Below are positions 873-1,223 of a stretch of 11,149 bases of DNA, piece after piece. Numbering within the stretch: the stretch's first letter is position 1; each line of letters begins with the position of its first letter. The DNA is from a virus: the UHGV virus genome UHGV-1783573. One strand, written 5' to 3'. A program made the position numbers and the translations under genes. The notes beneath the pieces are model-generated. The model searched no databases. It had not been told where the DNA came from and was given only the letters and a program-made list of their open reading frames with translations.

Positions 873-1223
873 ATGACTCAAAACTATAAACTGATTGTGA
901 AAGGGATCCGCAATTTTGAGAATAAAGTTACGGTAACTTTAGCGTTACGGGACAAAAAACGCTTTGACGGTGAAATTTTTGACCTGGACATCTCGCTGGA
1001 CCGTGTTGAAGGTGCCGCGCTGGGGTTTTATGAGGCAGCAGCCAGAAGGAGCATCAGACAGGTCTTCCTGGATGTTGCTGCCGGGTTATGTGAAGGGGAT
1101 GAGCAGTCGCCGGAAAAGCGCCCCGTAATTTTAGAGGCGCAGAATGTGTGGATAACCTACAAAGGAAAGCTACCAGGAAGAATTACTGGTTCTCTGAAGA
1201 CTCCTCCGGAATCACAACCTTAA
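873..1223 (+). CDS. Hypothetical protein inserted between holin and endolysin; possibly DUF1327 / YdfR-like
   Basis: 116-aa ORF starting 4 bp after the holin stop with RBS GGAGAG. No TMD or obvious catalytic motif. Same position as ydfR between essQ and rrrQ in the E. coli Qin prophage, as I recall; family assignment is tentative. Confidence 0.65.
   Translation: MTQNYKLIVKGIRNFENKVTVTLALRDKKRFDGEIFDLDISLDRVEGAALGFYEAAARRSIRQVFLDVAAGLCEGDEQSPEKRPVILEAQNVWITYKGKLPGRITGSLKTPPESQP

Follow-up and report, generated by a model that had tools for sequence, protein, structure and literature searches.

The window analyzed here, an 11,149-nucleotide stretch of viral DNA, carries a lysis cassette in which a further gene, referred to below as Y, lies between the genes for the pinholin (S) and the endolysin (R). 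The features of the cassette, all on the + strand, are as follows.

653..868, + strand: S, a class II (phage-21-type) pinholin of 71 aa (Pfam PF04971, Phage_holin_2_1, P21 S family, E=8.6e-36; phrog holin)
858..865, + strand: Shine-Dalgarno sequence for Y, GGGGAGAG, within the last codons of S (read from the sequence)
873..1223 including the stop codon, + strand: Y, a YdfR-family (DUF1327) gene of 116 aa (Pfam, phrog, pN/pS)
873..1100, + strand: core DUF1327 domain of Y, aa 1-76 (AF2 model; a free-standing protein in distant relatives)
1101..1220, + strand: C-terminal module of Y, aa 77-116, SPEKRPVILEAQNVWITYKGKLPGRITGSLKTPPESQP, strongly conserved, structure without confident prediction
1224..1286, + strand: Y-R spacer of 63 nt, which forms the R leader, AU-rich and without a Shine-Dalgarno sequence
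1287..1820, + strand: R, an RrrQ-type lysozyme of 177 aa with a SAR-like N terminus (Pfam PF00959, Phage_lysozyme, E=1.4e-24)
1802..2284, + strand: Rz i-spanin (Pfam PF03245, E=3.8e-29)
2037-2243, + strand: Rz1 o-spanin ORF embedded in Rz, with a lipobox-like LIMVAGC

An initial annotation had described an extra 116-aa gene between the pinholin and the SAR endolysin, with a good ribosome-binding site and tight upstream coupling, and without a membrane segment or a recognizable catalytic motif; all of this holds. The reading frame, as read from the sequence, opens with an ATG at 873, 4 nt past the S stop codon (866-868), and ends with a TAA at 1223, and the GGAG of its Shine-Dalgarno sequence ends 9 nt upstream of the ATG. 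Translation of Y probably starts from this strong site, with which the pinholin gene closes. The protein has a mass of 13 kDa and a pI of 8.8, lacks a membrane segment (averaged over 19 residues, its Kyte-Doolittle hydropathy reaches at most 0.69), and matches no Pfam family other than DUF1327. In R, the N terminus is weakly hydrophobic and Gly/Ala-rich, and the E-x8-D-x5-T triad can be read directly from the sequence. A simple consensus scan of the + strand from 653 to ~2260 found no sigma-70-like promoter and no intrinsic terminator, which indicates that S, Y, R, and Rz belong to one late-operon stretch.

The kinship with DUF1327 and YdfR that had been proposed tentatively is borne out by a profile HMM search, in which Pfam DUF1327 (PF07041) matches Y with 139.1 bits (E=5.7e-41, profile positions 1-92 of 93), well over the Pfam gathering threshold of 25 bits. 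Y also matches phrog_406 (E=1.4e-66), its homologues fall into 302 clusters, and pairwise comparison of 45 distinct alleles gives a pN/pS of 0.38 overall (0.44 in the N-terminal domain, 0.31 in the C-terminal module); taken together, these results show that Y is a real gene and not a chance ORF. It is almost certainly a YdfR-family (DUF1327) protein, small, soluble, and cytoplasmic, and an accessory of lambdoid prophages. It is also an already catalogued gene rather than a new one, and for purposes of genome annotation an ordinary and already named one: proteins 97-98% identical to Y carry the NCBI name “YdfR family protein.” A search of NCBIfam found no model. The S-Y-R block (at least 80% of the stretch) is present in 2,774 of 5,426 complete E. 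coli genomes, and Y occurs in 101 phage records, among them H-19B, BP-4795, mEp460, and many Stx1a and Stx2c phages. The DUF1327 family as a whole is small, given that an exhaustive profile search of 1.84 billion representative proteins returned only 89 matches at E<=0.001; the members with a named source belong to Escherichia/Shigella, apart from a few in Yersinia, Sodalis, and Salmonella phage ES18. One contig that bears the label of a Veillonella parvula MAG (L005, JAGZPX010000007.1) also contains an S-YdfR-R cassette of the E. coli type, with the match statistics of the E. coli locus L004 (77% identity, residues 1-77); this is most likely a binning contaminant.

The parallel with the Qin prophage of E. 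coli K-12 (essQ-ydfR-rrrQ-rzpQ), also drawn in the initial annotation, extends to the spacing of the genes. K-12 YdfR (P76160) belongs to the same Pfam family as Y, is 78% identical and 95% similar to it over residues 1-74, starts, as here, 4 nt past an S21-type holin gene, and lies upstream of the gene for a 177-aa lysozyme. The two proteins part company toward the C terminus: K-12 YdfR is 103 aa long and has a helical C-terminal tail, with its stop codon overlapping the start of R, whereas the 116-aa Y has an unrelated, conserved 40-aa C-terminal module and is followed by the 63-nt spacer. The conserved placement that had been claimed for the gene is likewise found, in that S ends 7 nt upstream of Y and an RrrQ-type lysozyme gene lies downstream in 86 of 86 related loci, in which R is 92-100% identical and the flanking alleles are shuffled (79-100% identity for S, 46-97% for Rz).

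At the level of the protein, Y consists of a core and a tail. Given an alignment that includes the distant family members, AlphaFold2 predicts the core with a pLDDT of 90.4 and a pTM of 0.77 as a beta-beta-beta-alpha arrangement (strands at residues 5-14, 18-27, and 34-43, helix at residues 50-73). In distant DUF1327 members, the core stands alone as a protein of 72-76 aa, which can be aligned to residues 1-72 of Y, and the invariant or near-invariant core residues Y5, L7, Y53-E54, and A57, defined from a 33-sequence alignment that takes in members at 21-36% identity, are all present in Y. At residues 6 and 51, where at least 90% of the aligned homologues have Glu, the allele in the window carries Lys and Gly, respectively, and each of the two substitutions (E6K and E51G) is found in other natural alleles too. 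Structure prediction and structural comparison, the checks that had been suggested for this protein, thus delivered a confident core model but no significant fold match: a sequence search with Y found no PDB chain at E<=10, and Foldseek searches returned nothing at E<=0.001 from PDB (full-length model) or from BFVD. The weak fold-search matches reflect a common beta-beta-beta-alpha topology. Among the candidates considered and set aside, likeness to a PURA-repeat fold (Foldseek E ~0.2) was too weak for use, and a “KKxAK” motif reminiscent of a dsRBD, which reads AKKQAK in many alleles and ARRSIR in the window, lies two helix turns in rather than at the N-terminal end and is not conserved in distant DUF1327 members.

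The C-terminal module has a predicted pLDDT below 50. The module (SPEKRPVILEAQNVWITYKGKLPGRITGSLKTPP...) is nearly invariant across the aligned E. coli alleles and is under purifying selection (pN/pS 0.31). It was found in Escherichia/Shigella members only; K-12 YdfR lacks it, as do the members from Yersinia, Sodalis, and ES18. This 40-aa module is one among several interchangeable tails of the family, the others being the helical tail of the 103-aa K-12 YdfR, which is unrelated to it, a coiled-coil-like extension in proteins of 176-183 aa, and a further domain in proteins of 263-287 aa. Extended E. coli YdfR alleles (in ascending order of protein length, 169, 183, 263, and 268 aa) were seen at L084 3001-3807, L110 1501-2292, L109 1501-2010, and L002 4001-4552; their divergence starts just past an SLKTPP motif, and a minus-strand ORF is often present upstream of R.

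Comparison with related phages shows that Y is optional. Cassettes of the phage 21 and 933W type have the same S21 pinholin, SAR endolysin, and Rz/Rz1 families as the window, but in them S and R are adjacent, whereas the window has Y and the R leader at the junction. In the 933W-like phiXuzhou21-Stx2a, with the same S and R families and without Y, R starts 4 nt past S, so that the order is S-[4 nt]-R in that phage and S-[4 nt]-Y-[63 nt]-R in the window, a presence/absence polymorphism; Y and the conserved R leader together thus behave as a clean insertion at the S-R junction. The leader measures about 50-60 nt, and every Y-bearing cassette that was compared shares its 3' half (GATAAATCCTGATAAATATCC-ATG). 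R at an identity of at least 90% is found in ~305 phage records, as against 101 for Y, and Y does not obligatorily co-occur with S and R, whether judged from these phage records or from the family members found beside tail and terminase genes. Neither a membrane segment nor a muralytic domain nor a lipobox was found in Y by hydropathy analysis and Pfam search. Y does not belong to the structural components of the lysis machinery, and is instead an optional insertion that, with a ~60-nt R leader, occupies the S-R junction; in our judgment it is likely to be an accessory gene that is not needed for lysis. The alternative offered in the initial annotation, that Y is a moron, is broadly right, and the presence/absence pattern agrees with it, although an own promoter or terminator, a moron trait, was not found beside Y on the + strand by the simple consensus scan.

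When the genomic contexts of DUF1327 were examined in about a dozen lineages, the domain was found to be present independently of lysis genes. Tail genes or the terminase are its neighbours in Yersinia, in Sodalis, and in Salmonella phage ES18; the slots include those between tail genes L and K, upstream of L, after tail gene I, between M and L, between Q and the holin gene among toxin-antitoxin morons, upstream of holins, and upstream of terminase. ES18 gp24 may serve as an example. It shares the core domain with Y (BLASTP E=1e-4 in a two-sequence comparison; RefSeq name DUF1327) and, like Y, is encoded in the direction of the late operon, in a slot that is optional and flanked by conserved genes, but it is located between the tail genes M and L, outside the lysis cassette; it consists of the core with ~10 extra N-terminal residues and without the C-terminal module of Y, and it has a convergent partner, gp25, whereas the window has none. 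The annotation that gp24 has received in the ES18 record is “possible moron.”

Phages are known to encode small modulators of host RNase E, among them T4 Srd, T7 gp0.7, and phiKZ Dip, and T4 Srd reportedly binds the N-terminal half of the enzyme, as has been reported for YdfR. They are functional analogues of YdfR only, without sequence similarity to it, and the effect of YdfR on RNase E activity is putative. The only experimental lead to what YdfR does comes from a recent study in which a bacterial two-hybrid screen recovered YdfR 1-72 three times (PMC13232886, RNA Biol 2026). This segment interacts with RNase E (Rne 1-597) and more weakly with RNase G, a full-length YdfR fusion with a short linker was positive with Rne 1-597 only, Strep-YdfR co-purifies Rne 1-598-FLAG in an eluate rich in DNase-resistant nucleic acid, and overproduction of YdfR alters few transcripts (PMC13232886). 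Because the co-purification was done without nuclease treatment (PMC13232886), the contact between YdfR and RNase E is possibly bridged by RNA. The statement in the initial annotation that proteins of this kind are uncharacterized accordingly holds only in part: the 2026 paper reports binding of YdfR to the N-terminal half of RNase E and its co-purification with RNA. With the YdfR segment that interacts with RNase E, Y shares 78% identity and 95% similarity; by inference, this allele would retain the interaction, and the interaction would matter to the phage.

On this basis, the explanation that we rate best overall, and that falls slightly short of an even call, is that Y is expressed late and serves as an accessory protein directed at RNase E and/or RNA, not as a component of lysis timing. 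Y would be transcribed with the late operon; its beta-beta-beta-alpha core would dock on the catalytic N-terminal half of RNase E (and also of RNase G), and possibly on RNA, and the docked protein would alter RNA turnover in late lytic growth, for example that of the long late transcript. The more specific proposition that Y acts via RNase E and/or RNA is made by analogy with the K-12 homologue and is tentative, rather less than probable on its own. Several points count against it: the data are preliminary, there is no fold match, the C terminus is unlike that of K-12 YdfR, and the window allele carries E6K and E51G. In addition, the Escherichia loci examined have Y only between S and R, and a pure role in RNA decay fails to explain so strikingly fixed a slot. 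The optional presence of the gene, the occurrence of its core domain outside lysis cassettes, and the match to the RNase E-binding segment move the focus for the YdfR family from lysis timing to manipulation of host RNA decay or to a two-gene moron. Genes of this family are part of the lysis cassette in over half of the sequenced E. coli genomes and occur in many Stx1 and Stx2c phages. The RNase E lead and the convergent-partner pattern described below deserve follow-up.

The fixed position is also the best argument for a link to lysis. The initial annotation had taken the conserved placement to suggest, as one option, a role of Y in lysis timing or regulation, which the cytoplasmic protein could exert by acting on the cytoplasmic tail of the pinholin or on the membrane-tethered SAR endolysin: in 90 of 90 Escherichia loci it lies between S and R despite the shuffling of the S and Rz alleles, the gap to S is 4 nt, in K-12 the stop codon of Y overlaps the start of R, and ydfR was flagged by an envelope-integrity screen that PMC13232886 cites. 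The phenotype in that screen could, however, stem from polarity on rrrQ. In the 933W-type phages, S and R of these families function without Y, distant DUF1327 members lie far from lysis genes, Y neither has a TM segment nor resembles antiholins or endolysin regulators, and overproduction of K-12 YdfR causes no growth defect (PMC13232886). With Y-less 933W-like cassettes, a core domain outside the S-R slot, and harmless overproduction, the step from conserved placement to lysis timing is not supported, and we regard such a role as unlikely. The insertion could also act mainly in cis. In Y-less Stx2a phages, R lies 4 nt past S, behind the same GGGGAGAG, which there is 4 nt upstream of R and here serves Y, so that in the window R is moved off a strong Shine-Dalgarno sequence and left with an AU-rich leader without one, and in K-12, R is coupled to the stop codon of Y; translation of the SAR endolysin would then be lowered or uncoupled relative to that of the pinholin. 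No significant RNA structure was found in the Y-R spacer (fold z-score 0.37). The purifying selection on Y and its homology across genera show that the protein itself matters, and a mainly cis-acting insertion is very unlikely; it is nonetheless compatible with the others, and judging from the arrangement of translation signals, the insertion of Y may also shift the ratio of pinholin to endolysin.

Two further explanations treat Y as a moron or as part of one. If it were expressed from the prophage as a moron that benefits the lysogen by aiding the host under stress (cold, aminoglycosides), this would agree with the 3-fold increase in the streptomycin MIC upon overexpression of ASKA ydfR (PMC12924614), with the enrichment of a CFT073 ydfR probe in sigma-S in-vitro transcription (PMC3141248), with the reported cold induction of Qin genes (PMC13232886), and with the GC content of Y, which at 47.3% lies modestly below that of S (51.4%) and R (52.1%). 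Set against this, Y lies inside the late operon and on the late strand, with no promoter-like site on the + strand upstream of it or within S and no terminator after it, and ydfR reads are almost nil in RNA-seq of growing K-12 (PMC13232886); we consider a benefit to the lysogen highly doubtful as the main role. The other possibility is that Y is the orphaned half of a mobile two-gene moron whose partner (of which Y might have been, e.g., the regulator or antidote) has been lost, with the C-terminal module as a replacement. It draws on the finding that, outside Escherichia, the DUF1327 gene is immediately followed by a small ORF in convergent orientation in most of the lineages examined, Sodalis being the exception. 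Free-standing DUF1327 genes with such an ORF are found at these positions.

L103, 449-1001: DUF1327 gene and convergent ORF
L094, 529-1070: DUF1327 gene and convergent ORF
L096, 1636-2160: DUF1327 gene and convergent ORF
L104, 705-1232: DUF1327 gene and convergent ORF
L107, 2429-2981: DUF1327 gene and convergent ORF, gp24 and gp25 of ES18
L106, 1801-2340: DUF1327 gene and convergent ORF, phage Evi

The partner ORFs belong to real phage protein families (phrog), and two of these families each travel with DUF1327 to several positions: family A (phrog_25324) is found with it in L103 (M-L interval), in L094 (ahead of the holins), and in E. coli phage Evi (S-R interval), whereas family B (phrog_10490) is found with it behind tail gene I and ahead of the terminase and includes gp25, the neighbour of gp24 in ES18. 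All E. coli loci with a Y-R gap of more than 300 nt contain a minus-strand ORF, of 72-210 aa. On the other side, the partners come from at least five unrelated families and may be independent morons at a common hotspot, and PADLOC anti-phage defence models matched neither Y nor its long variants nor the convergent partners, for which Pfam gave no match either. The partner-less form is moreover the commonest, at 74 of the 90 fetched loci, a set picked for closeness to the window, and since this form is under purifying selection (pN/pS 0.38), Y must have a function that is independent of any partner. A tblastn search of the window with all partner proteins found neither a partner nor a partner remnant, and the idea that the C-terminal module is a partner remnant read in antisense was discarded on the same result. 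The pattern may represent a true two-gene module or, equally, an insertion hotspot shared by unrelated morons, and we consider it doubtful that Y is an orphaned half.

The accessory late protein directed at RNase E and/or RNA, which we prefer, can be joined with the partner pattern in a broader proposal, which we think quite improbable as it stands: DUF1327 would be the constant half, docking on RNase E and/or RNA, of a mobile module in the late slots of Enterobacterales temperate phages, combined with a small, fast-turnover convergent partner from at least five unrelated families, and the window would hold a partner-less derivative. If so, the module would use the slots M/L, L/K, after I, Q-S, S-R, and before terminase, the pair would constitute an undescribed phage system, e.g., a prophage-expressed effector checked or redirected by a late RNase E-binding adaptor, and the C-terminal module of Y would stand in for the role of the partner.

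For the remainder, the window comprises morphogenesis genes of a P22-like module (terminase, portal, scaffold, coat, tail-4), and four further ORFs were noted between the lysis cassette and these genes.

2487-3008: KilA-N domain gene, between Rz and terminase
2507-3064, minus strand: 185-aa ORF overlapping the KilA-N gene, probably spurious
3298-3678: N4 gp49/Sf6 gp66-family gene, between Rz and terminase
3779-4021: DUF2560 gene, between Rz and terminase

Apart from three tRNAs, Rfam matched nothing in the window. These tRNAs, tRNA-Thr(tgt), tRNA-Tyr(gta), and tRNA-Gly(tcc), occupy positions 1-361, in an order and spacing that we take to be those of the host thrU-tyrU-glyT operon. The stretch is 99.7-100% identical to a locus in 5,426 of 5,426 complete E. 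coli genomes, and the match stops exactly at 361; related phages have Met-Thr-Gly or Ile-Lys-Thr-Gly tRNAs in the same Q-S interval. The tRNA stretch appears to have been acquired recently, through capture from the host tRNA operon or recombination with it.
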